Positions 2,270-51,738 of a stretch of 64,000 bases of DNA are shown here, one piece after another. The notes under the pieces were generated by a model. The model saw only the letters and a program-made list of their open reading frames with translations, had not been told where the DNA came from and did not search any database. Where the stretch lies: contig CAWJZC010000003.1 in NCBI GenBank assembly GCA_963847195.1, positions 55,968 through 119,967 on the forward strand. Direction: 5' to 3'. This stretch comes from an uncultured Chloroflexia bacterium. Lineage in GTDB: Bacteria > Chloroflexota > Chloroflexia > Thermomicrobiales > JALYUS01. How positions within the stretch are numbered: position 1 is the first letter of the stretch; each line of letters opens with the position of its first letter. The translations under genes were made by a program, and so were the position numbers.

Positions 2270-3226
2270 TCAGCAATGCGAACCACAGAGACACAGAGAG
2301 CACAGAGTGGGAAACAGAGGAAAAGAGGGGGGCGATAGAGAACGTGTATGCGCCTTAGGGGGGTCTCCTTTGTCTCTTTTTCTCCGGGTTTCTCTGTGTC
2401 CTCTGTGCCTCTGCGGTTCATCCCCCGGTCGTACAAGGTGGTTGAGGGGGCCGTGGCCGTGGCCGATGCCGGGTGCGGCGGCGATGGCGGCGTGGGTATA
2501 CCGTTTCGCCGCCGCGAAAGCGTCCGGCACTGTCTGTCCTTTGGCGAGGCAGGCGGTCATCGCGGCGGAGAAGGTGCAGCCCGTGCCGTGCGTGTGCGGC
2601 GTGTCGATACGCGGCGTGGCGAGCGACTGGAAGGATGTGCCATCGTAGAGGAGATCGGTGACAGTCTCGCCGCCCATGTGACCACCTTTGATGACGACCC
2701 AGCGTGGGCCGAGCGCGTGGAGCCGTCGTGCCGCCTCCCGCATCTCCTCCATGGTGCGGATCGACCCGCCGACGAGCGTTTCCGCCTCGGGCACATTCGG
2801 CGTGATGACAAGCGTGAGCGGCAGCAGGTGCGCCCGCATGGCGTCCACGGCGTCCGCGGCGAGGAGGTGGTCGCCGCTCTTCGCCACCATCACCGGGTCG
2901 ACGACGAGCTGCGTCAGCCCGGCGTTGGCGATCATCGCCGCGACCGCCGCGACGACCTTGGCCGTGCCGAGCATCCCGGTCTTCAGGGCGTCCACGCCAA
3001 TGTCGCCCGCCACGCTCTCGAACTGCGTGGTGATGAAGGCGGGCGACAGCGTCTCGACCCCCTGCACGCCGACGGTGTTCTGCGCCGTCACCGCAGTCAG
3101 GACGCTCATGCCGTAGACGCCGAAAGCGGAAAAGGTCTTCAAGTCCGCCTGGATGCCCGCGCCGCCGCCGGAATCGGAGCCGGCGATGGTCAACGCTCGC
3201 GCGAGGCTGAAGCGCTGAGCGGTCAT
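2270..3226 (-). CDS. thiD: Hydroxymethylpyrimidine/phosphomethylpyrimidine kinase ThiD with a ~48-aa repeat-encoded C-terminal tail
   Basis: [32 protein letters not shown]...[15 protein letters not shown]...GHGHGPLNH is ThiD-like. After the usual end the frame stays open through repeat 2280-2419 to TGA 2270-2272. Confidence 0.85.
2280..2419. repeat. CACAGAG-type long palindromic element (copy 1)
   Basis: Left arm GAACCACAGAGACACAGAGAGCACAGAG (2280-2307). Right arm CTCTGTGTCCTCTGTGCCTCTGCGGTTC (2392-2419). The purine-rich/pyrimidine-rich centre is also self-complementary. Confidence 0.9.
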
Positions 3227-3894
3227 CGTTGTGTACCGCCCGGGGAGGGCGGTTCGACGAACCGCCCCTACGGATTGGGCGAGGGCGCGGGTGGCGGCTT
3301 CTACATCCGCTGCGAGACCGATGGCGGAGATGACGGCGACGCCTGCCGCGCCCGCTGCGATCACCGCTCCGGCATTCTCGGCGGTGATGCCGCCGATACC
3401 GACGATGGGGATGGGGGCTGAACGCGGCGATCGTCGCGCACGAGCGTCAGGCCGAGGGGTGGCCCGGCGTCTACCTTCGTGTTGCGGGCCTCGTAGACGG
3501 GGCCGACGCCGAGATGATCCGCGCCCGCCGCGATCGCCGCCCGCGCCGCCTCGACACTGCCCGCCGACGCGCCGACGAACTCTGCGGCCCGACGAGTCGC
3601 CGCGTCGCTTCCACCGGCAGATCGTCCTCGCCGACATGCACGCCGTCCGCGTCCATCGCGAGGGCGATATCGACGCGGTCGTTGACGATGAAGGCGACGC
3701 CCGCCGCCCGCGCCAGGTCCTGCACCATGACCGCGTCCGCATAGAAGCGGCGGATATCGCTCGACTTGTCCCGCAGTTGCAGCACGGTCGCGCCGCCTCG
3801 GATCGCCGCCGTCCGCGACTTCGATGAGCGAGCGGCCCGCCGTGAAGTCGCGGTCGAGGACGACATAGACGGAGAGGTCGAGCGGGCGGTTCAT
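3227..3894 (-). pseudogene. thiE: Thiamine-phosphate synthase ThiE, frame broken about 4 times (near 3810, 3585, 3435, 3415); last segment in frame with thiD
   Basis: ThiE pieces appear in successive frames: [27 protein letters not shown] / [43 protein letters not shown] / [45 protein letters not shown] / ATIAAFS / [35 protein letters not shown] 3894 overlaps the upstream stop (ATGA). There is no stop before thiD ATG 3226. Confidence 0.8.
3240..3268. repeat. CCGGGGAGGGCGGTTCG-N-CGAACCGCCC palindrome (copy 1)
   Basis: GGGCGGTTCGACGAACCGCCC hairpin between the thiE and thiD coding parts. A near-identical copy lies at 8865-8891. Confidence 0.85.
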
Positions 3895-4960
3895 TGGCCC
3901 GTTACCTGCGCCATCGCCGCGCCAAAGGCATTCCAGAACGGATCGACGCGCGGATGGACGAGCGGGCGGTCCGTGCCGCCCTCGGTGACCGTCATGCCGC
4001 GGTCGGCGGGGAGCGTCTCGCCGACGATGCTGCCGACGATCTGCTTCTCCGCCAGCGCGCGCACGACGGCGTCCGCCTTCTCCGGGCGGCAGGTGAGCAG
4101 CAGTGTCCCCTCGCTGATCGCCGCGTACGGGTCCATCGCGAAGGCCTCGCAGACGGCGCGGGCCGCGTCCGCGACCGGGATCGCCGCGCGGTCGATGCGC
4201 ATGCCGACGCCCGCCGCCTGCGCGATCTCGTACAGCCCGCCCCAGACGCCGCACTCGGTCGCGTCGTGCATCGCGGTGACGCCGTTGCCGCGCACGCCGA
4301 CGCTGACGGCGGCCATCGCGTCCTCGACGACCGACATCTGCCAGAAGAGGTCCGCCGCACCCTGCGCCACCGCCCCGCCGCACTTCTCCTCGACGAGCGC
4401 GGGGAAGGAGACGCCGAAGAGCCCCGTCGCCTCGATCGCCGCGCCCTTCGTGACGATCACCGCATCGCCGACCTGCGCCATCGTCGGCACGATGTAGGCA
4501 TCCTCCGGCCCGACGCTCATCACCGTCGCGCCGCCGACCATCGGGTAGTCGCAGCCGTCGTAGCGCGCCGTGTGGCCGGCGACGATGGCGATGCCGAGCC
4601 GCTCGCACTCGCGGTGGATCGTCGTCCAGATCGCGTCCAGCCCCTCCATATCGAGGGAGAGCGGCAGGTTGAGGTCGATGGTCAGGTAGGTCGGGCTTGA
4701 GACCGGAGGTCGCGGCGTCCGAGGCGAGGATATGCAGGGCAAACCATGCCGCCCGCTCCCAGCCGTAGGCGGGGACGATGAAGACGGGGTCGGTCGTGAC
4801 CGCCATCACCTGCCCGCCGCCGATGGAAATGACGCCGACATCGACGCCGTTCTGCGGCGGGACGAGGACGCGGCGCATCGCGCGCGCCGAGATGCGGCAG
4901 GATGAGATGCTGGAAGATTTCCGGGGAGATTTTGCCGATATCGGGGAGTTTGACGGTCAT
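3891..4960 (-). pseudogene. AIR-synthase-related protein (PurM/HypE/ThiL superfamily), two apparent frameshifts (near 4880 and 4700)
   Basis: [26 protein letters not shown] / [59 protein letters not shown] / YLTIDLNLP...[28 protein letters not shown]... lie in three frames. SD GGAGGA precedes ATG 4960. This is the first gene after the TPP riboswitch. Confidence 0.7.
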
Positions 4961-5007
4961 CGCGCGTCCTCCAGACGGTGGGTGGGGAAGGCGCGATGGC
5001 GAAGACG

Positions 5008-5108
5008 ATTTGCTCTCCCACTTCCCTACGCCGGTGCGAACCGGATCAGGTGCGAAGGGTCTGCGGGTCTCCCCGCACTCTCAGCGCGCCAGCGCTCCCC
5101 CAGTGCTG
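5008..5108 (-). promoter_or_regulatory. TPP (THI-box) riboswitch
   Basis: The minus strand reads GCUGAGAGUGCGGGGAGACCCGCAGACCCUUCGCACCUGAUCCGGUUCGCACCGGCGUAGGGAAGUGGGAG. It has the CUGAGA box and the ACCUGAUCCGG...CCGGCGUAGGGA core, about 50 nt upstream of ATG 4960. Confidence 0.85.
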
Positions 5109-5214
5109 TTCAGTTGCCGGAGACTGTACGCGCGCGCGCCGCGTTCGTCAATCGCCGTGCTATCATCGCGGAGCATGGACATTTCCGCCGAAGTAGCACG
5201 AGGGGGAAGCCATC

Positions 5215-5537
5215 ATGTACGTCCTGCTGGTCCAGATCGATATTCTCCCGGAGCACCGCGATGCCTTTTCGCCGCCATGCGGCGGGCATGCCCGCCGGGC
5301 GCGCGAGAACGAACCCGGCACGATCCGCTTCGACGTGATCGCCGACGAGAACGAGCCGAACGCGCCTATATTACTACGAAGTCTACGCGGACAAAGCGGC
5401 CTTCGACGCCCATGGCGAAGGGCGAGAGCATCGCCATCTTCCGCGCGGAAACCCAGGGATGGTCCAACGGCACGACCGTCGTCAGGCGCGGCGAGACGCT
5501 GTTCCCGCCGGACGGCGGTCCATACTGGCAGAAGTGA
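5215..5537 (+). pseudogene. Antibiotic-biosynthesis-monooxygenase (ABM) domain protein, two apparent frameshifts (near 5362 and 5410)
   Basis: MYVLLVQIDILPEHRDAF..ENEPGTIRFDVIADENEPN / RLYYYEVYADKAAFDAH / AKGESIAIFRAETQGWSNG...GPYWQK lie in frames stepping +1 each time. SD AGGGGGAAG precedes ATG 5215. Confidence 0.65.
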
Positions 5538-5683
5538 GCGCGTGAATTCCTCTCATCCGTGCGATCGAGCGAATCCCGGCGACTGTGCGACAAGAACCGA
5601 TCGCGAAGGGCACTGTGCTCAAAGGCCCGTGCGCTCTCGGGTATAATGGACGCTGCGACGCTGAGCTACAGGAGGTACGCCAG

Positions 5684-6397
5684 ATGTGTGAGTTCCACAA
5701 CGATTTGCCGATGATCGCCGATGGCGAGGATCAGTTCATCCTCGATACGCCGGTGATGCGCGACTTCATCGCGGCGGTCGATGCCGCCCGCGCTTCCGCC
5801 CCCTCGGCGGCAGCGGCGATCGAGCAGATCCGGCCGCACTTCGCCGCTCTGCTCGCGGACCCCGATTGGCTGCCGCCGGAGTATCAGGAACCGGCGGCGC
5901 AGAGCGGCATGGGCAGCAACACCGGCATGTGGCTGCTCTATCGCGCGGGGGATGGCGGGCTCGCCTTCTCCGTCCTCGTCCTCGGGCCGGGCCGCGAGAC
6001 GCCCGTCCATGACCATCTCGCCTGGGGCCTCGTCGGCCTCTATCGCGGCGAGCAGGATGAGGTCGTCTATCAGCGGCGGGACGACGGCTCGCGCGATGCC
6101 TTCGCGGACCTCGCCGTCGCGGAGCACAATGCCCTGACGCCCGGCGATTTCTACACGCTCCTGCCGGAGAACGACATCCATCGCGTCCGCACGACCTCGG
6201 ATGTCACCTCCGTCTCGCTGCATCTGCTTGGCAACGACAACGGCTGCATCGCCCGGCGGCAGTACGTCCCCGATGAAAAGGTTGCCAAGCCCTTCCGCAG
6301 CGGCTACCTCAACATCAAATGTGCCGACGGCGAAGCCCGCGCCACCCCGAATTGGGACGAGGTCCACGAGTCCCTGGAACGCCTCGCGGCGGTGTGA
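5684..6397 (+). CDS. Cupin-fold protein, cysteine-dioxygenase type I-like
   Basis: GRETPVHDHLAWGLVGLYRGEQDE...NDIHRVRTTSDVTSVSLHLLG suggests a metal-binding cupin. ATG 5684 is preceded by GGAGG. TATAAT lies at 5642-5647. Confidence 0.6.
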   Translation: MCEFHNDLPMIADGEDQFILDTPVMRDFIAAVDAARASAPSAAAAIEQIRPHFAALLADPDWLPPEYQEPAAQSGMGSNTGMWLLYRAGDGGLAFSVLVLGPGRETPVHDHLAWGLVGLYRGEQDEVVYQRRDDGSRDAFADLAVAEHNALTPGDFYTLLPENDIHRVRTTSDVTSVSLHLLGNDNGCIARRQYVPDEKVAKPFRSGYLNIKCADGEARATPNWDEVHESLERLAAV

Positions 6398-6402
6398 CCG
6401 AG

Positions 6403-6458
6403 AAGTAACGAGTAACGAGGGGAATTCCGCATCCGCTCGTTACTCGTTACTCGCTACT
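6403..6458. repeat. Heptamer-armed hairpin (GAGTAAC / GTTACTC type)
   Basis: GTAACGAGTAACGAGG (6405-6420), loop GGAATTCCGCATCC, then GCTCGTTACTCGTTACTCGCTAC (6435-6457). A second hairpin follows: CCTCCGG..CCGGAGG (6460-6480). It sits between convergent genes. Confidence 0.85.
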
Positions 6459-6485
6459 GCCTCCGGACAGGGGCCGGAGGAGGCG

Positions 6486-7064
6486 TTACTGGACGGCGCG
6501 GCTGCCGAGTTCATGCAGCACGGGCGCCTCGCGCAAGGACGTGCGCTGCTCCTCGATGGTACGGGTTTCCTCGGTGAGAATGTTGCTAATATCTCGCCGC
6601 AGGACGTAGAAGCGGTCGCTCGTATCGTCCCGCACGGACTCGACGGCGCCCGCGTACATCCAGCGGTAGATCGTCGGCCGTGCGACGCCGAGTTGCTCCG
6701 CCGCCGCGCCGATGCTCATCAGTTCGGCGTGATCGACGCTGCGCCACTTCGCCTGCGAGAGCATCTTGCCGAGCGGCTCCGTCCAGAAGGGGTGCTGCAC
6801 CTCATACACATCCGCGCCGGCGGGCCAGAAGAGGAGATCGAGGATCGCCCGCACCGATTGGAAGACCTGATCGGCCGGTACCCGCTCCTCGCCCCGAGCG
6901 ATGCTGGCGAGGCGCTGCAGATCCTGCCCTAACGGGCCGGAGCGCAGTTGCTCCAGCGACACGGCATCCGGCACAGCGCCGGTCAAGTGCCGGTGGAAGC
7001 GATGCAACTGGCTGTGAATGAGCCGCAGCGTCTGATCAATGACGGGTTCGTAATCGATCGGCAT
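6486..7064 (-). CDS. Hypothetical protein with excisionase/MerR-like helix-turn-helix
   Basis: LMSIGAAAEQLGVARPTIYRWMYAG resembles an HTH_17-type motif. Clean ORF with ATG at 7064. Confidence 0.55.
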   Translation of the reverse strand: MPIDYEPVIDQTLRLIHSQLHRFHRHLTGAVPDAVSLEQLRSGPLGQDLQRLASIARGEERVPADQVFQSVRAILDLLFWPAGADVYEVQHPFWTEPLGKMLSQAKWRSVDHAELMSIGAAAEQLGVARPTIYRWMYAGAVESVRDDTSDRFYVLRRDISNILTEETRTIEEQRTSLREAPVLHELGSRAVQ

Positions 7065-7180
7065 GATATGTTCCTTCGTCTGATATGTGCCGCACCCGGC
7101 TGCCGTCGTATCAATACGGACACTTTGTACGTTACGTATTGTACGTTCGTCTGGTCGCTATGTCAAGTGGGCATCGGGCG

Positions 7181-7237
7181 GTAGCGAGCAGCGAGTTGCG
7201 AGGAAATGCGCGTTTCGCTCTCGCTACTCGCTACTAC
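7181..7237. repeat. Heptamer-armed hairpin (GTAGCGA / TCGCTAC type)
   Basis: GTAGCGAGCAGCGAGT (7181-7196) pairs with CGCTCTCGCTACTCGCTACTAC (7216-7237). The permease stop (CTA 7234-7236 on +) lies inside the right arm. Confidence 0.8.
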
Positions 7238-8082
7238 CTGCGATAGGGCAACAATCGTCGCTCGATTTCGTCCATGAGGAAGTTGAGCAGGACGCCGAGG
7301 AGGGCGGCGGCGATCAGGCCGGCGTACATCTGCTCGATGTCGAGGATTTGCCAGGAGAGCCAGATGCGCGTGCCAATGCCGTAGCCGCCGGGGATGACGA
7401 ATTCGCTGCCGACCGCGACGATCAGCGAGAAGCCGAGCGCCAGCCGCGCGCCCGTCAGCACGAGCGGCAGCGCGCCGGGCAGGGCGACGGTGCGGATCAC
7501 TTGCCAGCGGCTCGCGCGGAAAGAATGCGCCACATCGAGGTGTAGCCGGTCAATCGCCATCACGCCCGCCATCGCGTTCAGGAGGACGAAGAAGAAGCTG
7601 CTCGCGACGATCATCGCGATCTTGCTTTGCTCCCCGAGACCGAAGATGACGAGGAAGAGCGGCAGGATGGCGATTTTCGGGATGGCGTAAATGAGCGACG
7701 TGATCGGCAGCAGCACGGCGCGCAGCGTGCCGGAGAGCCCCATCAAGAGCCCGACGGCGGCAGCCGGGAAGAAGCCGAGCAGGAAGCCGACCGCCACCCG
7801 CCGCGTCGTAGCGAGCACGTCGAGCGGGAGTTCACCGGAGAGCGTCAGCCGTTTCAACGCGCCGAGGATCGCCGTCGGCGGCGGGAAGAACGTCGCATTG
7901 AGAAGCCCGGAGCGCGACGCGATCTCCCAGAGAACGAGCAGGAAAAGGGGAGAGAGGAAGGCGAGCAGCCGCTCCCGACGAGGACTGAGGACTGAGGACT
8001 GAGGACTGAGAATATCACGTCCCGTTCGCTGCATTTGCGAGGATGCCGACATTGAGTTGTCTATGATCTGCTGATCGTTCAT
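7234..8082 (-). CDS. ABC transporter permease, NitT/TauT (nitrate/sulfonate/taurine) family
   Basis: A multi-TM sequence with the binding-protein-dependent transport signature region IAMIVASSFFFVLLNAMAGVMAID...RASRWQVIRTVALPGALP. SD GGGAGAAGG precedes ATG 8082. Confidence 0.8.
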   Translation of the reverse strand: MNDQQIIDNSMSASSQMQRTGRDILSPQSSVLSPRRERLLAFLSPLFLLVLWEIASRSGLLNATFFPPPTAILGALKRLTLSGELPLDVLATTRRVAVGFLLGFFPAAAVGLLMGLSGTLRAVLLPITSLIYAIPKIAILPLFLVIFGLGEQSKIAMIVASSFFFVLLNAMAGVMAIDRLHLDVAHSFRASRWQVIRTVALPGALPLVLTGARLALGFSLIVAVGSEFVIPGGYGIGTRIWLSWQILDIEQMYAGLIAAALLGVLLNFLMDEIERRLLPYRR

Positions 8083-8130: not shown

Positions 8131-8904
8131 CCCTTGCTCAAGTGTCTCCCAGATGCGGGTCGCGGCGGCGCGGAAGGCGAGCCCTTCGCGGTCCGCGTAG
8201 CGCGTACGCGGGCGGGGGAGATCGATCGGCAGATCGAGGATCACCCGGCCCGGTCGCGCGCTCATCGCGCAGACGCGGTCGCCCATCGCCACCGCCTCAT
8301 CGACGCTGTGGGTGACGAAGACGACCGTCTTGCCGCTCCCCTGCCAGAGCGTCATCAGTTGCTCCTGCATCAGAATACGCGTCTGCTCATCGAGGCTGCC
8401 GAAGGGCTCGTCCATCAGCAGCACATCGGGGTCAATCGCGAGCGCGCGGGCGATATTGACACGTTGCTGCATCCCGCCGGAGAGGGTGTGCGGGTAGGCG
8501 CGGGCAAACCGCTCCAGCCCGACGCGGCGCAGTTGCGCGATGGCGATCTCCCGCCGCTGCGCGGTGGGCATCCCGTCCAATTGCAACCCATACGCGACAT
8601 TATCCACCGCCGTCAGCCACGGGAAGAGCGACTGTCCCTGGAAGACCGTCGCCACCCGCCCCGCCACCTGCACCGTGCCGCTCGTCGGTCGCGCCAGCCC
8701 CGCGAGGATCCGTAAGAGCGAGGTCTTCCCGCAGCCGCTCGGCCCGACGAGGCAGACGAACTCCCCCGGCCGCACCGTCAGATTCGTGTCCGCCAACGCG
8801 GGCACCGTACCGAACTGCTGCGTCACGTCTGCGACGAGGACCGCAGGCTGCGCGTGCCCGCCAGCCGGGGAGGGCGGTTCGCGAACCGCCCACGACGCTA
8901 TCAA
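8113..8904 (-). CDS. ABC transporter ATP-binding protein, NitT/TauT family
   Basis: Walker A GPSGCGKTS, signature LSGGMQQRVNIARAL, Walker B LLMDEP. The start is uncertain: TTG 8904 is the nearest in-frame start and its first codons translate palindrome 8865-8891. Confidence 0.85.
   Translation of the reverse strand: MIASWAVREPPSPAGGHAQPAVLVADVTQQFGTVPALADTNLTVRPGEFVCLVGPSGCGKTSLLRILAGLARPTSGTVQVAGRVATVFQGQSLFPWLTAVDNVAYGLQLDGMPTAQRREIAIAQLRRVGLERFARAYPHTLSGGMQQRVNIARALAIDPDVLLMDEPFGSLDEQTRILMQEQLMTLWQGSGKTVVFVTHSVDEAVAMGDRVCAMSARPGRVILDLPIDLPRPRTRYADREGLAFRAAATRIWETLEQGLRTDD
8865..8891. repeat. CCGGGGAGGGCGGTTCGCGAACCGCCC palindrome (copy 2)
   Basis: GGGCGGTTCGCGAACCGCCC is a perfect 20-nt palindrome (8872-8891) with the same 5' flank as copy 1. 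Confidence 0.9.
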
Positions 8905-8919
8905 TCTTCTCGCTACTCA

Positions 8920-9944
8920 TTACGCTACACGGCTTATATGGCCCCAGCTTCTTCACGGCGGCATCGGCGAAGGAGGTATCGATCTGCTTGTGCATGTCGA
9001 GCGGGTCTTTATAGGTGAGGCCGCCGCGCTCGAAGTAGAACTGCTGCATCGTCTGGAGGTCGTCGAGCTTGAACTGGCCGTTCGGGTCGAAGGTCGGCGC
9101 GTTGGAGCGCTTGGCGACATCGGCGGGCACTTTCGTGTACTTCTCGATAATGGTCGCGATTGCGTCGGTCTTGAAGGCGCCGCCTTGCAAGTCGCGGCAC
9201 GCCTTGATGTAGGCGTTCATGAATCCCTGCGCCGGGCCCTTCTTCTCCTGGGCGAACTTCGTGTTGTAGAGGACGATGGTCGGGAAGAAGCCGCTGATGA
9301 AGTCGTCGGAGAGGATCTGTATCTGCCCCTTATCCTTCGCCTGCGTGACGATCGGCTCGCCGAGCATCGACGCGGCAATCGCGCCGTTCTCCAAGGCGGC
9401 GGGCACATCGGCAAAGGCGACATTCTCCACCTGCACATCGGTCAACTTGAGGCCGCCCTTCTCCAGCGCGCGCGCCAGCCAGTACTCGGTCGCCGAGCCG
9501 GCCGCATTGATGGCGACTTTCTTGCCCTTGAGGTCCGCCACGCTCTTGATCTGGCCGCTGTCGTACGCCTTCTTGCTGACGACGAGCGGTGTCGTGACGG
9601 GCGGCGCCTCGCTGTGCAGCGGCGCGACGACCGTGATGCCGATGTTCTTCGCCAGCGCATTGAAGGTGGCGACGCCCAAGCCCGCCAAGGCCGACATCGA
9701 AGTTGCCCGTCGCCGTCTGCGTGATGACGTCCGTGCCGCCCGCCAGCGGGGCGAGGTTGATATCGAGATTTTCCGCCTTGAAGTACCCCTTCTCGATGCC
9801 GACGTAGAGCGGCGCATCGATCATCACGGGGATGTAGCCGACCGTCAGCTTGGTGGGGGTATCGGCGGATTTACTGCCGCCGCAGGCCGTGAGAACCAAC
9901 GTGATCGCGAGCACGCCGACCAGAGAACCGCTCAACCGACGCAT
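8920..9944 (-). pseudogene. ABC transporter substrate-binding lipoprotein, NMT1/THI5-SsuA-like; apparent frameshifts near 9690 and 8925
   Basis: MRRLSGSLVGVLAITLVLTACGG (lipobox) ..KLTVGYIPVMIDAPLYVGIEKGYF.. is followed in the next frame by NALAKNIGITVVAPLH...KKLGPYKP. One more +1 step gives VA-TAA (8920-8922) inside a heptamer array. As written, the frame runs on into the ATPase gene. Confidence 0.7.
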
Positions 9945-11629: not shown

Positions 11630-13486
<1,857 letters not shown>

Positions 13487-28476: not shown

Positions 28477-28585
28477 GTACCACAGAGCCACAGAGAACGC
28501 AGAGAGGGAAAGAGGATGAGGGGTAGAGAAAGTCCAGAAGTCATTCTCTTGTTTCTTCTCCGTGCTCTCTGTGTCTCGGTGGTTC
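28477..28585. repeat. CACAGAG-type long palindromic element (copy 3)
   Basis: GTACCACAGAGCCACAGAGAACGCAGAGAG ... CTCCGTGCTCTCTGTGTCTCGGTGGTTC, between livH and livM inside the operon. Confidence 0.9.
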
Positions 28586-28602
28586 AAGCGTTACCCGGAG
28601 GG

Positions 28603-29638
28603 ATGATGGCCGTGCGGCGTGTGGGGATTGGATTGCTGGCGCTGGTTGCTGCGGTGGTCGTGGCGGTGCTGCCGCGCGCGTTGACGCCGGACAAGCAAGA
28701 TGTCGTCATCTTCATGGGGCTGTACACGATTGTCGGCGCGGGGTTGACACTCCTGATGGGCTTCGCGGGGCAGGTATCACTCGGGCAGGGGGGCTTTTTC
28801 GCCATCGGTGCGTATACCGTCGGGCTGCTGACGGCGAAGGCGCACTGGAACCCCTGGCTCGCGCTCGTCGTCGCGCCGGTGGCGGCGCTCGCGGTGGGGT
28901 ATGTCGTCGGCCTGCCGCTGCTCCGCCTGCGCGGGCATCATCTGGCGGTGGCGACGCTCGCCTTCGGCATCATCGTCTACACCCTCCTCAATAATCTGCG
29001 GGGCCTCACCGGCGGGCCGGTCGGTCTGCGAGGAATCAAGCAGCCGACGCATCGGCGGCACAGTACTCAGCGGCGAGCGCTTCTACGACTTCATCTGGAT
29101 CGTCGCGGCGCTCTCGCTCGTCGTCGCCTGGAACATCGTCCGCTCGCGACCGGGGCGGGCGCTCCGGGCGATCGCGCAGCACGAGGGGGCGGCGGAGTCG
29201 GTCGGCATCAATGTGCGCCTCTACCGCCTGACGATCTTCGCCATCGCGGCGATGTTCGCGGGCGGCGGCGGGCGGCTTATTCGCCAGTTACTTCAAGTTC
29301 CTCTCGCCGGACTCATTCAAGCCCACCGCTCTCGCATCCTCTTCCTGATCATCGTCGCCGTCGGCGGCCTGGGGAACGTCTACGGCGCGCTCGTCGGCTC
29401 GGTCGCCATCGTCCTACTGACGGAGTTCCTCAAGCGGCTCTCCACCCGGCCGGACTTCCCCGCCCGCGCGCCCGTCGTCTTGCAGTCCATCGTCTACGCC
29501 GCTATCCTCATCCTCATCATGCTCTTCCTGCCGCGCGGCCTCCTCCCCGGCATGATCCACTCCGGTCGCCAACTGATCGCCCGCATCCGGGGCACGCGCA
29601 CCATCGGCGTACCTCTCGACGAACTCGCGGACGGCTGA
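28603..29638 (+). pseudogene. livM: Branched-chain amino-acid ABC transporter permease LivM, about 3 frame breaks (near 29040, 29268, 29325)
   Basis: MMAVRRVGIGLLALV..FMGLYTIVGAGLTLLMGFAGQVSLGQGGFFAIGAYTVG.. / ERFYDFIWIVAALSLV..RALRAIAQHEGAAESVGINV..AAMFAG / AGGLFASYFKFLSPDSFKPT / ILFLIIVAVGGLGNVYGALVGS... Confidence 0.8.
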
Positions 29639-29767
29639 GGACGGGGATTGCCAGCCGCAGAGAGTTCAAACGGTTCCCCGCTGATTGTGCATCTTTGCCA
29701 ATCGCGCACATCAAACCTTTCGATGCTGCACATCGTTTCCTCTCACTCCGTTATGTATACTGATTGC

Positions 29768-35146: not shown

Positions 35147-36861
35147 GTGGCAAATCTAACGCTACCGAATTCGCCTGAAGCGTTCGCGGAGGCGACGTGG
35201 GACGATATTCTGCCCTACTACCAGGAACTGGCCGCCCGGCCGCTCGATCGCACGAACGTTGAGGCGTGGCTGAGCGACTGGGCGAAGCTGGAGGAGATGG
35301 TCGCGGAGGCGAGCGCGATTGCCTACAACGCCTACTACGACCGATACGGCGAGCGCGGCGAAGGAGGCGGCGCAGGTGCGCTTCTCCAGCGAGATCGAGC
35401 CGCAGATGCACGAGCAGCACGTCGGCCTCTCCAAGCGGCTGCTCGACCTCGGCTACGAGCCCACCAACACCGAGACGCTGCTCCGTAGTTTCCGCAACCA
35501 GTTGGCGATCTTCCGCGAGGAGAATGTGCCGCTCGTCGGGGACGAGGAGCGGCTGAACACGCAGTACAACAAGATCACCGGCGGGATGACCGTCGAGTGG
35601 GAGGGTGAGGAAATTCCCCTCCCCCGCTTGCAGCCGTACTTGCTCAACCCGGATCGCTCGGTGCGCGAGCGGGCGTGGCGACTCGGCACGCAGCCCTACA
35701 TCGACCAGCACGACGCGCTCGCCGACATCTTCGACCAACAGTACGCGCTCCGGCAGCAGATGGCGAAGAATGCCGGGTTCGCCAACTACCGGGACTACAT
35801 GCACCGCGCCAAGGACCGGTTCGATTACACGACGGACGACTGCGAGCGGTTCCACGCCGCCGTCGAGCAGACCGTTGTGCCCGCCGTCGCGCGTCGGTTG
35901 GAGCGGCGACGCCAGCGGATGGGGCTCGACACGCTGCGCCCGTGGGATACCGCCGTCGATCCCGAGGGCCGCCCGCCGCTCAAACCGTTTGACGAGGTCG
36001 GCACCTTGATCGGCCAGGCGGAGACGATCTTCGACCGCGTCGATCCGACGCTCGGCGGCTACTTCAAGACGATGGCCGATGAGCGCCTGCTCGATCTCGA
36101 CAGCCGCAAGGGCAAGGCGCCGGGCGGCTACTGCATCGACTACCCATTCCGGGGTCGCCCCTTCATCTTCATGAACGCGGTCGGCGTCGCGGGCGATGTC
36201 GATACCCTGCTCCACGAGGCGGGGCACGCCTTCCACGTCTTCGAGGCGCACGACATCCCCCTCTACTGGCAGCGGCACACCGGGCTCGGAGATGGCGGAA
36301 GTCGCCTCGATGAGCATGGAACTGCTCACCGCCCCCTACCTCGCCAAAGAGGACGGCGGCTACTATTCCGAGTCGGACGCACGCCGGGCGCGCATCGAGC
36401 ATCTGGAGGGTATCTTGCAGGGGCTTCCCCACATCGCCGCGGTGGACGCCTTCCAGCACTGGATCTACACGAGCGGCGAGGGTCACGACCGCGACGCTCG
36501 CGATGCCGCCTGGCTCAGTATCCGCGCCCGCTTCGAGCGCGGCGTCGATTGGTCCGGGCTGGAGCGGCAGCGCATCGCCCGCTGGTACCGGCAACTGCAC
36601 ATCTTCCTCTACCCGTTCTACTACATCGAGTACGGCATCGCGCAGGTGGGGGCATTGCAGGTGTGGCGCAACAGCTTGGGGGACCATGCGGAGGCGTTGG
36701 CGGCATACCGGCGGGCGCTGGCGCTGGGCGGGACACGACCCTTGCCGGAGCTGTTCGGGGCGGCGGGGGCGGCGCTGGTCTTCGATGCGGGGACGATGGG
36801 CGCGCTCACCGCCCTCGTGGAAGCGCAACTGGCCGCCCTCGAAACCGAGAACGAGGGGTGA
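35147..36861 (+). pseudogene. Oligoendopeptidase F-family (M3B) metallopeptidase, two apparent frameshifts (near 35341 and 36283)
   Basis: GTG 35147 follows AAAAGGAG. The zinc motif HEAGHAFH and the downstream SEMAEVASMSMELL..FYYIEYGIAQVGALQVW are in different frames. Frames step 2,0,1. Confidence 0.8.
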
Positions 36862-37043
36862 TCGTGGCGACGTGTTTCGGAAACGGACTCACAGGCGCTC
36901 TGGCTGTGCTACCGGTAGCGCAGGCACGGCGCCCGCGTCCCCGAATGACGCGCTGAAGTCGTAAAGGTTCATCAGCCTGGCGCGGCGAGGTTCGGCAGGC
37001 GGGAGCCCGTCGCCACCAATACGACGTGCTGAGTGAGGAATCC

Positions 37044-37784: not shown

Positions 37785-37970
37785 AATGATCCTGCGCCGT
37801 GCGTGATGCCTCCTTTATGCCATTGAGCCAATACTTCAATGTGCGGGAGCCATAACCCATCAGGAGCGAGGCCGCCGGTGAGTAACCGGCGTTACCATTC
37901 CCGGTGGCGGGGCGCCCACCTGCCTCGGCAGGTTCAGAGCATTCCGAGGCACACGGCGGGGCGGGATCAC
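37785..37970 (+). ncRNA. Candidate structured RNA (about 185 nt; small RNA or holA 5' leader), identity unknown
   Basis: A long interrupted closing helix: GAUCCUGC/GCGGGAUC (37788-95 / 37961-68), GCCGUG/CACGGC (37796-801 / 37952-57), UGCCUC/GAGGCA (37807-12 / 37946-51), AUGC/GCAU, UUGAGCC/GGUUCAGA. Internal hairpins lie at 37873-37891 and 37903-37920. No ORF. It sits directly downstream of a strong promoter. Confidence 0.4.
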
Positions 37971-38008
37971 CCCACGAATGACTGAGTCGAGGACCGAGGA
38001 CTGAGACG

Positions 38009-39507: not shown

Positions 39508-39679
39508 GCGCTTCTCCTGATTGCTTCGGCTATCGACGCTTCACGCTGCAAACGGCCCTGCATCGGGCGCGTCTGGTAGACTACCACGGATGACGGCGCC
39601 GTGCAAGCAGCCGGATTGCCCCACCCCTGCCCCTGCCCCGCCATACGGGAGAGGGGAGTGCAAGGAGAACGCTTGCGTT

Positions 39680-41526
39680 ATGCAGATTGACGGGGCCGCG
39701 CCAGCGTCCGGCCTGACGCCGGAGGAGCAAATCGAACAGACCCGGCGCATCAAGTGGGTGCCGCGCCCCCCGAAGGCGAAAGCGCGCCCGAGGGCCACCG
39801 ACACGCCCGGAGCCGAAATCAGGCGCGCCACCCCGGTCATCCCCACACCGGAAATCGACCTCGAACCCGAGCCTATCCCGACGCTCGTCATGCCGCCGAA
39901 CGCGCCATCGACCATCGAAATCCGTCAGATCACGCCGCAGGTGACTCCCGTCGCGGCCCGGGCGCGCGTGGCGATGGGCCGGTCCGTCGCGGTGGTCGGG
40001 CTCGCCTTCATCGCCAACCGCGTGCTCGGCTTGCTGCGGGATGTGATCATCGCGGGCAAGTTCGGCACGCGCGCGGACCTCGACGCCTACTACGCCGCCT
40101 TCCGCATCCCGGACTTCCTCTTCCTCGTCATCGCCTCCGGCGCGTTCGGCGCGGCCTTCATCCCGATCTTCACCGGCTTCCTCGAACGCGACGACGAGAC
40201 CGCCGCCTGGGTACTGGCGAGCAGCGTCCTCAATACCGCCTTCTACGCCCTCACCGCGCTCTCCGCGCATCGGCTTCTTCCTCGCCGGGCCGCTCGTCCG
40301 GACGATTGTCGCGCCCGGCCTGACCGCCGCGCAGCAGCACCTCGCGACCGATCTGACGCGCGTGCTGCTCCTGCAGCCGCTCTTCCTCGGCCTCGGCGGG
40401 GCGGCGATGGGCATCCTGAACGCGCAGAACCGCTTCCTCTGGCCCGCCCTCGCGCCCGTCACCTACAACCTCGGCATCATCTTCGGCGCGCTCGTCCTCG
40501 CGCCCCGCTACGGCGTCAAGGGGCTGGCGTACGGCGTCGTGATCGGCGCGGTCGGCCACTTCCTCACGCAACTGCCCGCCCTGGCGCGCGTGATGCGCTA
40601 CTACCCCGTCGTCTCGCTGCGCGTGCCGGGGATGCGGCAGGTCGGCGTGCTGCTCGTGCCGCGCATGTTCGGGCAGGCGGTCTTCGCGCTCAATTTCGTC
40701 ATCGTGACGAACTTCGCCTCCCGGCTCGGCGAGGGGCGCGTCTCCGGCTTCCAGTACGGCTACACGCTCTTCCTGCTGCCGCACGGCGTCTTCGCCCTCT
40801 CCGCCGCGACGGTGCTCTTCCCCACCCTCTCGCGCCTCGCCGGGGCGGGCGATTGGGAGCAGTTCCGCTCGCAGTACGCCGGGACGCTGCGGAGCGTCCT
40901 CTTCTTCGTCGTGCCCGCCACCGCCGGCGCTGATCGCCTTGCGCACGGCGATCCCCGAGGCGATCTATCAACTCGGCGCATTCAACAGCACCTCGACCGA
41001 CCCTGACCGCGACCGCCCTCGGCGCGCTGGCGACGGGCCTGATCGCCTACGCGGTCGTCGAGATCGTCACGCGCGCCTTCTACGCCTTGCAGGATACGCG
41101 CACGCCGGTGATCGCGGGGGTGCTCACCATTGCCCTCAATCTGCCGCTCAGTTGGACCCTGAGCAAGGCGTTCGGCCTCGGCGGCCTCGGCCTCAGCCTC
41201 GCGCTGACGACCTGGCTGGAGATGGCGATCCTGCTCATCGTCCTCCGCCGCCGGATGGGCGTCATCGCGCCGGGGCTGACCGCGTCGCTCGTGCGCATCT
41301 TCTGGGCGACCGCCGCGATGACCGTTGTGCTGATGCCCTGCTCGTGGCTGCTGCACGCGACTGCATCGCACGACCGGCAAGAGCATCGCGCAACTCGCCT
41401 TCTTCCTCGTCACGCTCGGCATCGGCGCGGCCGTCTATCTCGGCGTCTCCTCATGGCTCGGCGTCGAGGAAGTGGCAGCGCGTCCGCGCGATGGTCCTGC
41501 GCCGCCTCGGGCGCGGAGCCCGATGA
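39680..41526 (+). pseudogene. murJ: Lipid II flippase MurJ (MviN) with N-terminal extension, about 5 apparent 1-nt insertions (near 40268, 40930, 41000, 41365, 41490)
   Basis: AFIANRVLGLLRDVIIAGKFGTRADLDAYYAAFRIPDFLFLVIASGAFGAAFIPIF / IGFFLAGPLV..LLLQPLFLGLGGAAMGILNAQNRFLWPALAPVTYNLGII.. / TAIPEAIYQLGAF / ALATGLIAYAVVEIVTRAFYALQDTRTPV.. / GKSIAQLAFFLVTLGIGAAVY / RVRAMVLRRL. Frames step 2,0,1,2,0,1. Confidence 0.85.
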
Positions 41527-41546
41527 CGAGGAGACTCCCTTCTCAG

Positions 41547-41606
41547 TGGCGGCGGGCTTCAGCCTGCCGCAGATGACCCGTTCGGCAGGCTGAAGCCCGC
41601 CGCCAT
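41547..41606. terminator. Perfect 23-bp stem hairpin downstream of murJ (no U-tract)
   Basis: TGGCGGCGGGCTTCAGCCTGCCG (41547-41569), 14-nt loop, then CGGCAGGCTGAAGCCCGCCGCCA (41584-41606). Confidence 0.5.
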
Positions 41607-44159: not shown

Positions 44160-45985
<1,826 letters not shown>

Positions 45986-46184
45986 CCTTTCGTGGGGCGA
46001 AGGGGCGTATTCGCCTTACGCGCTCCGGGAAGCGCAGCGACTCGTCGTCGGGATTGCGTGATGGCGATTTCGTCCCGGCAAGAAATGGAGCGATGCGGTC
46101 GGACTGACCGGCAACGCTCCGGGCATGCGGTATGATTGGTGCGCCACCGCGTTTTCTGCGCCGATGCGCGATGCGAGGACCGCC

Positions 46185-49100
46185 ATGCAGCACGCACCGG
46201 ATGCGCCGTACGTCTTTATCTCCTATGCCAGCGCCGATCGCGAGCGCGTCCTGCCCCTCGTCGATGCCCTCGCGCGCGCCGGGGTAACGGTCTGGATCGA
46301 CCGCGAGGGCATCCACGGCGGCGCGAACTACGGCCGGGAGATCGCCAAGGCGATCAAGGGGTCGGCGGCGCTCATGCTCATGGCATCCTCGATGTCACTG
46401 GCGTCCCGGAATGTCAAGCAGGAGATCGCGGTGGCATGGGAGTACGAGCGCCCCTACCTGCCGCTGCTCCTCGAACCCGTCGCCATCCCGGATGACCTCA
46501 AATACTGGCTGACCGCCGCCCAGTGGATCGAGGTGCTGGACAGACCCGAAGTCGCGTGGCTGCCGCGGGTGCTCACCGCGCTCCAACCGCTCGGCGTCAT
46601 CCCAACGGCCCAACCGCGCGAGGAAGATCAACTCGCAGGCCGGGAACGCGAACTCGGGCTGCTCCGAGACAAACTCGCCGCCGCGAAAGCGGGCGAGGGC
46701 GGGCTGGTGCTGATCGGCGGGGAGGCGGGCGTGGGCAAGACGACGCTCGCCGATGCCGTGCTGCGGGAGGCGGCGTGGCAGGGGTTCGCCGTGCTGGAAG
46801 GGCACTGCTTCGACCTCGCCGAGACGCCGCCGTACGGGCCCTTCATCGACCTCTTCGCCCGTTTCCGTCCGTCGCCCTCCTCTCCCCCGCTGCCCGACGC
46901 CTTCAAGGAGCGGGGGACGGTCGGGGCGGTGCCCAGCCAGATGGCGCTCTTCGTGCAGGTGCAGGACTTCCTCGCCGCGCTGAGCGGGCAACAGCCCATC
47001 GCGGCGCTGCTCGATGATCTCCACTGGGCAGACCCCGCCTCGCTCGACCTGCTACGCTTCCTCGCCCGCTCGATCGGCGGACCTGCCGCTGCTGATCTTC
47101 GTCACTTACCGTTCGGACGAACTGACCCGCCGGAACCTGCTCTCTGCCCTGCTGCCCCAGTTAGCCCGCGAGGCGGGGGCGACACGCCTCGCCCTCGGCA
47201 GCCTCGACGACGATGCCGTACGGGCAGTGGTGAGCGCGCGCTACGGCTTGCCGGACGCCGATACCGACCGGCTCGCCGCCTATCTCCAATCGCGCGCCGA
47301 GGGGAACGCCCTTTTCGTCGGCGAACTCCTGCATTCGCTGGAAGAAAGCGGCCTCTTGACGCGCGAGGGCGACGTGTGGCGGCTCGCCGCCTTGACCGCG
47401 ACCGCCGTTCCCGCCCTGCTGCGGCAGGTCATCGACGCTCGGGTAGGCCGGTTGGACGACGAGAGCCAGCGACTGCTCGCGGTCGCCGCCGCCATCGGGC
47501 AGGAGGTGCCGCTCGCGGTCTGGGCGGCGGCGGGAGAGGCGGACGAGGAGACGCTGCTCGACCTCGCGGAGCGCGGGGAGGAGGCGCGGCTGCTGGTGGC
47601 CGGGAGCGACGGGGAGGCGGTGCGCTTCGCCCATGCATTGATCCGGGAAGCCTTGTACGAGGGGATCGCGCCGCTGCGCCGCGCCCGCCTCCATCGGGGC
47701 GTCGCCGACATCCTGCTCGCGCAGCCGCAGCCCGACCCGGATGCGCTCGTCCACCACCTGCGCGCCGCGCGCGACCCCCGGCTCGGCCACTGGCTTTTCG
47801 AGGCGGGCACGCGGGCGTTCCAGGCGTCGGCGCAGGCGACGGCGATCGCCCGCTTCGAGGAGGCGCTGCCCCTGCTCGCCGGGCCGGACGATGCGATGGA
47901 CCGCTACGTCGCGCTCTACCGCCTGACCATCCTGCGCGTCTCCGAACCCGCCGCCGTGGACGATGCGGAGGAGGCGGTGCGGGTCGCGGAGGAGATGGGG
48001 GACCGAGGTGCTCGCGGCGTGCGCCCTCTCGCGGCTCGGCTTCCTGCGGGGCTACCACGGAGACATCCCGACCGGGCTGGCGGAATTGGAGCGGGCGGCC
48101 CCGGTGCTCGCGGCCCATCCCGACTTCATCTTCCGCGCGGCCTCGGTGCCGGTCAAGCGCCGCCAATGTCGCCCGGGGCAACCTCGCCAGCGCGCTCACG
48201 GCCGTGGGTCGGCTGCACGAGGCGCGGGCGCTGGCGTCGGGGGTGGCGCTGCTGCAACAACGCCTACCTCGCGCTGATTGCGAGCGAGGGAATGCTCGGC
48301 CACCCCGAAGCGGCGCGGGCCGCCGCGCGGGCGTACATCGTCGCCCTCTCCGCCAAGGACATAGATGTCGGCTTCGCGTATCTCCTGGACTTGAACCATG
48401 CGCTCGTGCCCTATCATGCCGACGATGCGGGGGAGGTGCGACGGCTCGCCGCTGCGGCGGAGGCGCGGTTCGAGCGGATGGGGGAGGAGGCGCGCGGCTT
48501 CCCGCCGCGCCTCGCGCAGGTGGCTCCCTTGGTCCTCCATGGAGAGTGGGAGGAGGCGCTCATCTTCCTACCGTACGCCCGCCGCGTGCGCCATTTGTTG
48601 CAATCAAACATCTGGGCCGTCCCGCTGTATGCGGTCGTGGTGCGGGCGCGGGGGGAGCGGGGACTGGGGTGGGAGATGGTGCGCGAGATGTTCCCGGCGG
48701 GGCCGGGTACGGAGCCGGGGGCGATGCCGTTCCGGTACGCGCAGGCGATGCAGCGGCTGGGGGCGGCGCTGGCGCTGGACGAAGGCGACCAAGCGACGGC
48801 AAAAGAGTGGCTGGAGACGCACGATCGCTGGCTCGCCTGGTCGGGGGCGGTCCCGGGGCGGTCGGAAGGGCAGTTGCTATGGGCAGAGTACCACCGGCAG
48901 GCGGGCGACATGGAGAAGGCGAGGGAGCATGCCGAACGCGCTCATGCCATGGCGAACGAACCGCGCCAACCGCTCGCGCTGCTCGCCGCCCATCGACTGC
49001 TCGGCGAACTCGATGCCGACGCGGGCCGGTACGAGGACGCGGCCCAGCATCTCGATGCGGCGCTCGCCCTCGCGACCGCGTGCGAGGCGCCGTACGAGCG

Positions 49101-49263
49101 GGCGCTGACGCTGCTCGCGCTGGCCGAGCTGGGCGCCGCGACGGGGGAGACCGAGGAGGCGGTACGCCTGCTCACCGAGGTGCGGGCGATCTGCGGGCCG
49201 CTCGGCGCGACGCCCGCCCTCGCCCGCACCGATGCGCTGGCCGCCCGCATCGGCGTCACCTGA
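46185..49263 (+). pseudogene. TIR domain - P-loop STAND (AAA_16-like) NTPase - TPR-like repeat protein, about 1025 aa; four apparent 1-nt insertions (near 47075, 48005, 48155, 48262)
   Basis: TIR-like N-terminus YVFISYASADRERVLPLVDALARAGVTVWIDREGIHGGANYGREIAKAIKGSAALMLMASSMSLASRNVKQEIAVAWE. Then LAGRERELGLL..Walker A GGEAGVGKTTL, Walker B AALLDDLHWADPASLDLLRFL, an LLIFVTYRSDEL segment, and a helical-repeat C-terminus (..DMEKAREHAERAHAMA..GRYEDAAQHLDAALALA..). Frames step 0,1,2,0,1. Confidence 0.75.
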
Positions 49264-49575: not shown

Positions 49576-50409
49576 TCACGGTGCCGGTTCGAAGGCGGCG
49601 CAGAGCATCCCGAAATAGGTCGGCGCTTCGTAGGAGAGGAACTCGCCCCGCCACGCATCGCCGATCGCGCCGGAGAGCATCAGCATCTGCCAGAATGAGT
49701 CCGCCTTCGCCGCGGCGACCAGCGCCGGGTCGATCTCCTGCACGCCGGTGAGATGGTTTGCTTTGATCAGATCCACGACATGATTGTCGTACTCGGCGGC
49801 GGCGGGATCGAAGCCGTAGGGCCCGTCCGCGAGGTGGGCGTGGCCGTGGTCCGAACTGGCGATCATCGCGACGCGCTTGCCGGAGGCCGCCGCCAGCGCC
49901 GCCAATGCCTGCCCGGCGCGCACATGATCCGCCGGTGAGTGATCTCGCGCCGGGCTGATGACGACGATCGGCACCTGCGGCTCCGACCGGCCACCCATGA
50001 ACCAGAGGGGGATCAAGACTCCCCAGTCCATCGGCGCGGTCGCGCCCTTCGCATCGTTGCCGCCATAGCTGATGCCGACCGCCGGGACATCCGCCGCGTT
50101 GAGGGCATCGATCGCGGCGCGCGCCAGATCGCGGTCGGTCGGGCAGTGCAACTCGATCTTCTCTTTCGTCCAGTCGGAGAGCGACCCGGCGAGCGTGCCC
50201 GCCGTGACGACCGCCATCGCTCCCTCCACATGGACATTGTGCGGCGTGAAGATGATCGTCGCGTCCGGGCGGGCGGCGGCAAAGCGGCGGCCAAGGTCCG
50301 CCATCGCTTCCTGCGTCTTCGTGGCGAGGCCGCGCTCTTCCGGCGCGCACGCCTCGGGGATCGCCAGGCTGCCGTGCGGCGCGATCGCGGCAAAAACCAA
50401 CCCACTCAT
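49576..50409 (-). CDS. Class III extradiol dioxygenase subunit B-like (LigB-family) protein
   Basis: MSGLVFAAIAPHGSLAIPE...TIIFTPHNVHVEG...MIASSDHGHAH. SD AAGGAGGAGG precedes ATG 50409. Confidence 0.6.
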   Translation of the reverse strand: MSGLVFAAIAPHGSLAIPEACAPEERGLATKTQEAMADLGRRFAAARPDATIIFTPHNVHVEGAMAVVTAGTLAGSLSDWTKEKIELHCPTDRDLARAAIDALNAADVPAVGISYGGNDAKGATAPMDWGVLIPLWFMGGRSEPQVPIVVISPARDHSPADHVRAGQALAALAAASGKRVAMIASSDHGHAHLADGPYGFDPAAAEYDNHVVDLIKANHLTGVQEIDPALVAAAKADSFWQMLMLSGAIGDAWRGEFLSYEAPTYFGMLCAAFEPAP

Positions 50410-50996: not shown

Positions 50997-51153
50997 CGGT
51001 TCCCCTCCCTTTTCTCTCCAGGTGTCCCTGCCCGTGCGGCGAGTATAGCAGGAGAGGGCCGAGCATGACCCGCGATGCGTCACAGAACGGGTATCTGTCC
51101 GTTTCTATCAGTAGCGAATGGCACGGGCGTCATTCTTCGGGAAGGGAGCGAGG

Positions 51154-51738
51154 ATGCCACGGATTGCCTGGGTGGAGGATGACGCGGCTGAGGGGGCGAC
51201 GGCGGAAGGGTTCGCGCGCGTCCGGGCCGCCTCGTCGAGCGGGCAGGTCGCGGAGATCATGCGGACGATGAGCGTGCGCCCGGATTTCATGGAGGCGATT
51301 CTCGCCGCGTCGCGCCTCCATTTCTCGGACGGCGCGCTGACCCGCGTGCAGCACGAGATGATCGCCTCGTACGTCGCCGCGCTCAATCGCTGCCACTACT
51401 GACTGACCAGCCACACCTGGTTCCTGCAGTTGCAGGGCGAGCAGTACAGTGCGGCGGCGCGGGCCCTCCGCGATGGCGATCTGGCGGCGGCCCCGGTCAC
51501 GCCCGCCGAGCGGCTCCTGCTGGAGTTCGTCGGCACCCTCACCGAGCACGCCTACCGGATCACCGATGAGCAGGTGCAAGGGCTGCGCGACGTCGGCTGG
51601 ACGGACGCGCAGATCGCCGAGGCGGTCTATGACGGCGCGCTTTTCAATCTTTTCGTCCGTCTCGCCGACGCCTTCGATATCCACCCGCCGCCCGTGATGG
51701 ACGCCGACGGGATACCGAAGGCGGTCACCGGCGGGTAG
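51154..51738 (+). CDS. AhpD-like / carboxymuconolactone-decarboxylase-family peroxidase-related protein with in-frame TGA 51400-51402 (candidate selenocysteine)
   Basis: ORFs 51118..51402 and 51430..51738 share one frame and are separated only by one TGA. The joined sequence reads LTRVQHEMIASYVAALNRCHY-TGA-LTSHTWFL, so TGA sits where the family motif N-x-C-x-Y-C-x-x-x-H has its second Cys. Hairpins lie at 51406-51421 and 51423-51436, just 3' of the TGA. Confidence 0.6.

Follow-up and report, generated by a model that had tools for sequence, protein, structure and literature searches.

A solitary TIR-STAND-TPR gene in a Thermomicrobiales genome encodes a candidate NLR-like receptor with a predicted NADase effector

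We examined a 64,000-nucleotide (nt) stretch of contig CAWJZC010000003.1 (GenBank assembly GCA_963847195.1, positions 55,968 to 119,967 of the forward strand) from an uncultured Chloroflexia bacterium of the Thermomicrobiales. This whole stretch is referred to as the window, and all coordinates are positions within it. On the plus strand at 46185..49263 lies a gene whose product joins a TIR domain, a STAND-type (AAA_16) NTPase and TPR-like repeats. A frame plot of third-position GC content, combined with a 7-state Viterbi segmentation, shows one continuous coding region across this interval, in which third-position GC remains at ~0.9 throughout and the reading frame follows the order 0, 1, 2, 0, 1, with steps near 47080, 48000, 48160 and 48256. 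Removal of four extra bases, one at each step, yields a product of 1,024 aa with no internal stops. Pfam searches of this frame-corrected protein recover the architecture that the original prediction had read from the sequence, that is, a TIR domain, a STAND P-loop and TPR-like repeats, and neither a helix-turn-helix (HTH) nor any other DNA-binding domain was found in the Pfam scan of the protein, in line with the proposed lack of a DNA-binding output domain.

The start codon is supported by homologues, whose N-termini read MQHxPDAPY or MPDAPY, and a GAGGA Shine-Dalgarno sequence is located ~7 nt before the ATG. An upstream ATG at 46125 was ruled out as the start, as the closest orthologue has an in-frame TGA there. 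The Shine-Dalgarno sequence is part of a conserved 5' leader (46124..46184, +) that is the only upstream DNA held in common with this orthologue: the blastn match of the orthologous locus to the window begins at 46124, only 60 nt before the ATG, and that of a contig from a related soil metagenome begins at 46121. The leader probably carries the promoter; a sigma-70 promoter scan at the locus found no promoter, and terminator-like sites there were weak only. The stop codon of lepA at 45985 leaves a 199-nt spacer before the gene, and 312 nt downstream of the gene is the stop codon of a LigB gene on the opposite strand (49576-50409, -; Pfam LigB, E=7.5e-28). The gene is monocistronic, with non-coding flanks of the anticipated ~200 and ~310 nt.

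The TIR domain occupies aa 8-135 (46206..46589, +), as defined by Pfam TIR_2 (residues 10-118, E=2e-20, 73.9 bits against a cut-off of 28), an AlphaFold2 model and Foldseek. When the model of residues 1-145 (pLDDT 90.5) was compared with solved structures, the top Foldseek matches were the SPARTA TIR-APAZ (TMq up to 0.78), the SARM1 TIR (0.70) and Cat1, all at a probability of 1.00, so that the nearest structures are indeed those of TIR NADases. Across 57 TIR-bearing homologues, nine residues are invariant (W37, D39, G45, G46, Y49, S74, R75, N76 and E80). Among these, E80 is the glutamate of the KQE motif (GAG codon at 46422..46424), which had been proposed to lie at the catalytic position of TIR NADases, and alignment, conservation and fold all agree with this placement. 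In a phmmer alignment, D39 (46299-46301), S74 (46404-46406) and E80 face D33, S68 and E74 of Cat1, residues that line its NADase site and whose alanine mutants are inactive (PMC12162218). D39 and S74 are therefore the predicted active-site partners of E80, and the domain appears to be of NADase type, with the catalytic glutamate and its partners in place and cleavage of NAD+ predicted. SPARTA, SARM1, Cat1 and AbTIR share this fold (TMq 0.70-0.78) and the same Glu, Asp and Ser positions, and all require oligomerization for activity; however, sequence identity to the TIR of the window protein is only 20-25%, and the activator here would be a STAND NTPase rather than an Argonaute, ARM-SAM or CARF module. 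When the TIR domain was searched by itself, all matches were fragments from this family, and the domain was not seen in any other architecture.

The NTPase follows at aa 149-304 (46629..47097, +), where Pfam AAA_16 matches with E=7.9e-28 and 98.5 bits against a cut-off of 32.6. The Walker A sequence GEAGVGKT (46719-46742) and the Walker B aspartates (47013-47018) can be read directly from the sequence. Across 67 homologues, including both TIR-type and HTH-type proteins, G179, G182, G184 and K185 of Walker A, D278 of Walker B, R309 and H503 are invariant. The predicted fusion of a STAND P-loop to the TIR domain is thus confirmed. Next comes a helical arm and winged-helix region (aa ~305-493; 47098..47664, +), delineated by modeling, conservation and Foldseek, which includes the invariant R309 and has H503 close by. 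The order of its parts, a P-loop with Walker A and B motifs, then a helical arm and winged helix, then repeats that form the sensor, gives the protein the features that define the STAND NTPase superfamily. It does not fall among the bNACHT or NB-ARC proteins, as NACHT scored 15.3 bits against a cut-off of 26.7 and NB-ARC 14.4 against 23.5, both matching the P-loop only. In NCBIfam the only match was partial and covered the AAA_16-TPR portion of a kinase/cyclase fusion. The NTPase belongs instead with the MalT/LAL type.

The repeats that had been expected after the NTPase are present as ~530 aa of TPR-like helices. Most of this length (aa ~560-890; 47863..48858, +) is hypervariable, with a column entropy of 2.0-2.7 bits compared with 0.7-1.4 elsewhere, whereas the TIR domain, the NTPase and winged-helix region and the last ~135 residues are conserved. 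The latter form a C-terminal TPR cap (aa 891-1024; 48859..49260, +) that is nearly invariant in TIR-type and HTH-type paralogues and contains a stretch in which Pfam TPR_12 exceeds its cut-off (residues 897-962, 48877-49074; 30.8 bits against 30.1). The full-length fold was taken from an intact homologue that is 58% identical (P0003; AlphaFold2 pLDDT 92.3), in which the TIR domain, a 25-residue linker, the P-loop domain, the helical arm and winged helix, and ~530 residues of paired helices succeed one another. The best full-length Foldseek match of this model is 6mfv, the archaeal TPR-STAND protein PH0952, and the second best is RPP1, over the TIR and the nucleotide-binding domain; Apaf-1, CED-4 and MalT (8bob) are also among the best. 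Searching the full protein sequence against the PDB produced weak TIR matches only (E>=0.06) and no solved close relative. The likeness to MalT/LAL regulators and to PH0952 consists of the AAA_16 P-loop, the winged helix and the TPR-like sensor. However, the C-terminal LuxR-type (GerE) HTH that characterizes MalT/LAL proteins is present in paralogues (P0026 and P0032) and not in the window protein, which has an N-terminal TIR with a complete NADase-type active site instead of a DNA-binding domain.

The original prediction cautioned that the frame is broken four times, each by a +1 step, and alignment to the locus of the closest orthologue (P0001, from a Thermomicrobiales metagenome-assembled genome (MAG), 86% identical) maps the breaks to four single extra bases in the window, which are the sole frame-changing differences between the two. 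The orthologue is uninterrupted at all four sites, its only interruption being a 10-N scaffold gap within the TIR domain. The best public sequencing run shares 7% of the 31-mers of the window, and the read evidence therefore comes from relatives and not from the source organism: contigs from two soil metagenome runs (X1 and X2), which stem from related organisms and are 92-99% identical (some 97-99% locally), lack the extra base at each site. At 47081 an additional A moves the frame from 0 to 1, where there is a gap in the orthologue alignment and the X1 contig has one base fewer. A G at 47997, within the GGGGG run 47996-48000, moves it from 1 to 2, and X1 omits a base at 48003, an equivalent placement. 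The third base, a G at 48157 (frame 2 to 0), is absent at full depth in X1 and corresponds to one gap in an X2 contig that is ~97% identical (record 14). The last, an A at 48256 (frame 0 to 1), is matched by an X1 omission at 48258, again at full depth, and by one gap in another X2 contig (record 15).

Such breaks are real in the sequence but are not peculiar to this gene, as a step that is always +1 divides the Pfam profiles of lepA, a sigma factor, MurJ, BPD_transp_2, an M3 peptidase and an NMT1 protein between frames. The lepA gene (44160-45985, +) has two +1 breaks, near 44684 and at 45307-45313, and an X1 relative lacks one base at 45307. The primary sigma-70 gene rpoD (11634-13486, +) also has two, with regions 1.1/1.2 in frame 0 (11634-12593), regions 2-4 in frame 2 (12560-13486) and a short frame-1 stretch around 12471-12542 between them. 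The gene for the lipid II flippase MurJ (39521-41593, +) occupies three frames with at least two breaks, profile positions 1-71, 104-295 and 348-431 falling in open reading frames (ORFs) 39521-40933, 40362-41006 and 41087-41593, respectively. One profile extends over two frames in each of the BPD_transp_2 permease (28516-29763, step at ~29063), the M3 peptidase (35319-36956, step at ~36288) and the NMT1-type binding protein (8600-9944, step at ~9700). Breaks are unevenly spread, the stretch 44.6-48.3 kb having six and the stretches 14-19 kb and 50-64 kb being free of them, and the consensus quality of the window is likewise uneven. Separately, a CMD-family (carboxymuconolactone decarboxylase-like) gene at 51118-51738 (+) is represented by two short ORFs (51118-51402 and 51430-51738), the first of which alone matches CMD, weakly; this may be another break.

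Were the four insertions genuine, the gene would be dead in this strain, and the occurrence of four breaks inside 1.2 kb, the clustering of six breaks at 44.6-48.3 kb, and the fragmentation of many family members in long-contig MAGs would all fit. However, the same +1 breaks split rpoD, murJ and lepA, and a cell with broken rpoD and murJ would not be viable. All validated breaks are insertions, a one-sidedness that a real mutational process would not produce. Further, the extra bases are missing from the orthologue and from the related metagenome contigs, and no in-frame stops are left once they are removed. Between the corrected gene and its orthologue, the ratio of nonsynonymous to synonymous substitution rates (dN/dS) is 0.23 overall and 0.17-0.58 in each inter-break segment, and therefore the entire frame, including the part downstream of the first break, is under purifying selection. 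We conclude that the four breaks are very probably consensus errors of the assembly and that the gene is almost certainly intact in the organism, which largely removes the concern that it is dead; a genuine pseudogene is very improbable. More generally, the assembly should be flagged for systematic one-base insertions, and pseudogene calls in the window should be distrusted.

At E<=1e-10 we recovered 2,435 homologues. Matches over the whole body are confined to Thermomicrobiales and Chloroflexia, and beyond these groups only the NTPase is matched (30-35% identity), in LAL-type proteins of actinobacteria and others like them. Four versions of the body exist. One has an XRE HTH at the N-terminus where the TIR domain would be, another has a LuxR (GerE) HTH at the C-terminus but lacks TIR, a third, occasional version combines TIR and LuxR, and the fourth, to which the window gene belongs, has TIR alone. 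Paralogues with LuxR or XRE HTH domains are 50-63% identical to it over the whole body. In several relatives, the TIR-type genes form tandem arrays. At one locus (L002) five consecutive TIR-type genes overlap by 4-8 nt, with a sixth nearby; at a second (L003) they show a two-plus-two arrangement; and a third (L087) is a syntenic array that is partly fragmented. Members of these arrays of 5-6 translationally overlapping paralogues are 37-60% identical, and each array adjoins a gene of 677-707 aa of the nSTAND_NTPase5/AAA kind. This companion (L002 1478-3511; L003 14574-16697; L087 1-189) has a classical AAA+ P-loop, weak nSTAND_NTPase5/AAA matches and, over the ~400 aa of its N-terminal half, no assigned domain. 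The 64-kb window contains no second paralogue and no such companion gene. In MAG contigs of Mb scale, gene calling breaks many family members into rows of short pieces that hold only TIR, only AAA_16 or only TPR, as at L087 296-10008 and at L088 6773-9730 and 13165-13626, which reflects either decay within the arrays or long-read frameshift errors of the same kind.

The TIR domain and the sensor of the window protein have different closest relatives. Its TIR is 81-86% identical to those of five TIR-type proteins (P0005 and P0007-P0010), whereas the sensor segments of the same proteins are only 29-36% identical to that of the window protein. From these comparisons the protein appears to be a mosaic of an array-type TIR and a sensor of the HTH-regulator type. 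In a neighbor-joining tree of the body, XRE-type proteins form the sister group of the window protein and its orthologue, and one XRE-type protein is nested in a TIR clade. Judged from sequence, the family seems to have repeatedly swapped TIR for XRE or LuxR HTH outputs.

The placement of the gene is not syntenically fixed. In the window, its neighborhood is housekeeping or metabolic, as had been noted for the interval between lepA and the LigB-like gene, and includes holA-like, MurJ, luciferase-like, cupredoxin, lepA, LigB, GYD, CMD, DUF2961, hydrolase, ComB-like, aldehyde dehydrogenase, NusA and IF-2 genes. The orthologue, on the other hand, lies in an unrelated context downstream of mutS, mutL, an S8 peptidase, a TPR-CHAT protein and a small GerE gene, so that orthologues are not uniformly conserved in a syntenic housekeeping setting. 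An X1 contig breaks at the same point as the similarity to the orthologous locus, and another links a gene end with a gene start, as in a tandem array. Near the orthologue, in coordinates of its own MAG sequence (L001), the TPR-CHAT (caspase-like) protein has 965 aa (4378-7275, -) and the S8 peptidase is at 2502-4337 (-), a neighborhood that resembles a conflict system, unlike that in the window, although this is suggestive only. No tRNA genes or integrase signatures were found around the window gene, and a PADLOC search of its neighborhood gave no meaningful matches. Elsewhere in the window there is a TPP riboswitch (Rfam RF00059, 68.1 bits; 5006-5111, -) upstream of thiamine genes, with TMP-TENI and AIRS domains in ORFs 3361-4878 (-), and a 6S RNA gene (37786-37971, +; Rfam RF00013, 64.2 bits, full-length match).

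Proteins that combine TIR, ATPase and TPR domains have already been tied to defense in bacteria (PMC11350192), and STAND clades with defense effector domains have been classed as defense-associated (PMC13581612). The architecture is already described (PMC11350192, PMC13581612), and what we report is an uncharacterized, lineage-specific member. The Escherichia coli "TIR-II" systems likewise combine TIR with TPR, and ~30% of them also have an ATPase domain (PMC11350192); they belong to another phylum and are likened here by architecture and not by sequence comparison. As in Avs/AVAST proteins (Gao et al. 2022; Lee et al. 2026, PMC13581612), one chain of the window protein carries the effector at its N-terminus, followed by the STAND NTPase and then by an extensive TPR-like sensor at its C-terminus, and the ~530 aa of helical repeats behind the NTPase and winged helix exceed the >=400 aa of sensor that the Avs layout calls for. 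Ligand-induced oligomerization that activates the effector would be the expected logic in both, TIR-bearing Avs included. Differences from Avs include the AAA_16/MalT-type NTPase, the lack of a match to any PADLOC Avs model, of a defense island and of a known phage trigger, the restriction of the family to Thermomicrobiales and Chloroflexia, and the tandem arrays in relatives. Avs genes are expected in defense islands or prophages, which is not the setting of the window gene; relatives beside CHAT-TPR or nSTAND5 genes are suggestive only. By analogy, the protein may work like an Avs- or NLR-type receptor yet stands outside every modeled Avs family. Plant TIR-NLRs such as RPP1 (PDB 7crc) share the order of TIR, STAND NTPase and repeat sensor, but differ in having an NB-ARC domain, which is sub-threshold here, LRR rather than TPR repeats, and an EDS1-type pathway.

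On balance, we lean toward the view that this real and almost certainly intact gene encodes a single-chain NLR-like receptor, that is, a ligand-gated, oligomerizing TIR NADase with a role in abortive infection. At rest, the protein would be a monomer whose TPR-like sensor is folded back onto the ADP-bound STAND (AAA_16) module. Binding of a ligand, most likely a phage or other non-self protein, to the hypervariable repeats would release autoinhibition and permit exchange of ADP for ATP, upon which the NTPase and winged-helix modules would oligomerize. This would gather the N-terminal TIR domains such that composite active sites could form around E80, D39 and S74, and the resulting hydrolysis of NAD+ would deplete the cell, arresting or killing it. 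The TIR domain is likely the terminal effector given that there is no operon partner, and a survey of Thoeris treats stand-alone TIRs and the TIRs of Avs alike, as NAD-depleting effectors (10.64898/2025.12.03.692087). We favor an immune role because the predicted effector is toxic, the family includes arrays with variable sensors, and published work treats TIR and STAND-effector clades in this way.

Several observations weigh against an immune receptor. Within ~10 kb of the gene there are no defense or mobile-element genes, flanking direct or inverted repeats amount to nothing beyond chance GC-rich matches, and a scan of viral contigs with the family profile found no relatives. A search of PADLOC-DB v2 with the frame-corrected protein (E<=0.1) yielded nothing beyond partial matches to TIR or P-loop models, with no Avs and no full-length defense model. 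Hence, of the NLR- or Avs-like logic put forward in the original prediction, the hypervariable sensor and the arrays of relatives lend support, while an Avs model match, defense genes nearby and relatives on viral contigs did not materialize. The intactness of the gene is itself deduced from relatives and from patterns within the window. The remaining points concern the body of the protein and its paralogues, and underlie the principal alternative.

This alternative is a non-immune sensor of metabolites or stress of the MalT/LAL type, in which a TIR has replaced the HTH and activation, instead of affecting transcription, would alter the NAD+ level or generate a signal derived from NAD, leading to dormancy or metabolic shut-down. 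It is the main rival because the NTPase and sensor body, AAA_16 plus TPR, is that of MalT/LAL regulators, MalT and PH0952 being among its fold matches, and because the sensor is common to transcription factors: it is 60% identical to that of an XRE-type paralogue (P0013) and 53-55% to those of LuxR-type paralogues (P0026, P0029 and P0032), compared with 29-36% for most TIR-type paralogues, and the position of the protein in the tree agrees. Given that the HTH-type paralogues with this sensor sit singly beside metabolic genes, the ligand could be a metabolite or an endogenous signal, and the window copy is itself solitary, chromosomal and surrounded by housekeeping genes. Nevertheless, an NAD-consuming TIR with invariant catalytic residues would be a toxic output of a kind so far met in systems of immunity and cell death, TIR-type members, unlike LAL regulators, form tandem arrays whose sensors are hypervariable, and the closest orthologue is not syntenic. 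We therefore regard a regulatory, non-immune role as possible though rather unlikely.

Less likely than this is Thoeris-like signaling, in which the TIR would make a messenger of the cyclic ADP-ribose (cADPR) type that acts on an effector encoded at another locus, such as the nSTAND5/AAA protein. The presence of that gene beside the arrays of three relatives and weak ThsB-type TIR matches could be taken to point this way, but Pfam ThsB_TIR remains under its cut-off (17.3 against 21.2 bits), the gene is monocistronic and not in an operon with a ThsA-type effector as in Thoeris, the window contains neither such a partner nor another paralogue, and the nearest TIR structures are those of NAD-depleting effectors. 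We consider this quite unlikely and, like decay of the gene, less likely than the regulatory alternative.

If active, the protein would be a TIR-effector STAND receptor from a high-GC, thermophile lineage, in a phylum with almost no experimentally studied immunity. More tentatively, and with less confidence than in the receptor itself, Thermomicrobiales may possess a lineage-specific NLR-like repertoire built on a MalT/LAL scaffold, composed of coupled hypervariable TIR arrays with a conserved nSTAND5/AAA companion and shaped by recent, repeated recombination between TIR and XRE or LuxR outputs, of which the window gene would be a solitary mosaic. The array organization and the short-range exchange of TIR and HTH are the more interesting aspects, but they are features of relatives and not of this solitary locus. 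If such a repertoire exists, one class of ligand would lead to gene regulation in some proteins and to NAD+ depletion in others. The family offers a natural experiment in output swapping, with sensors that are 53-60% identical placed on a TIR NADase or on a DNA-binding domain, which bears on the interconversion of defense and non-defense STAND clades, a question raised in PMC13581612.

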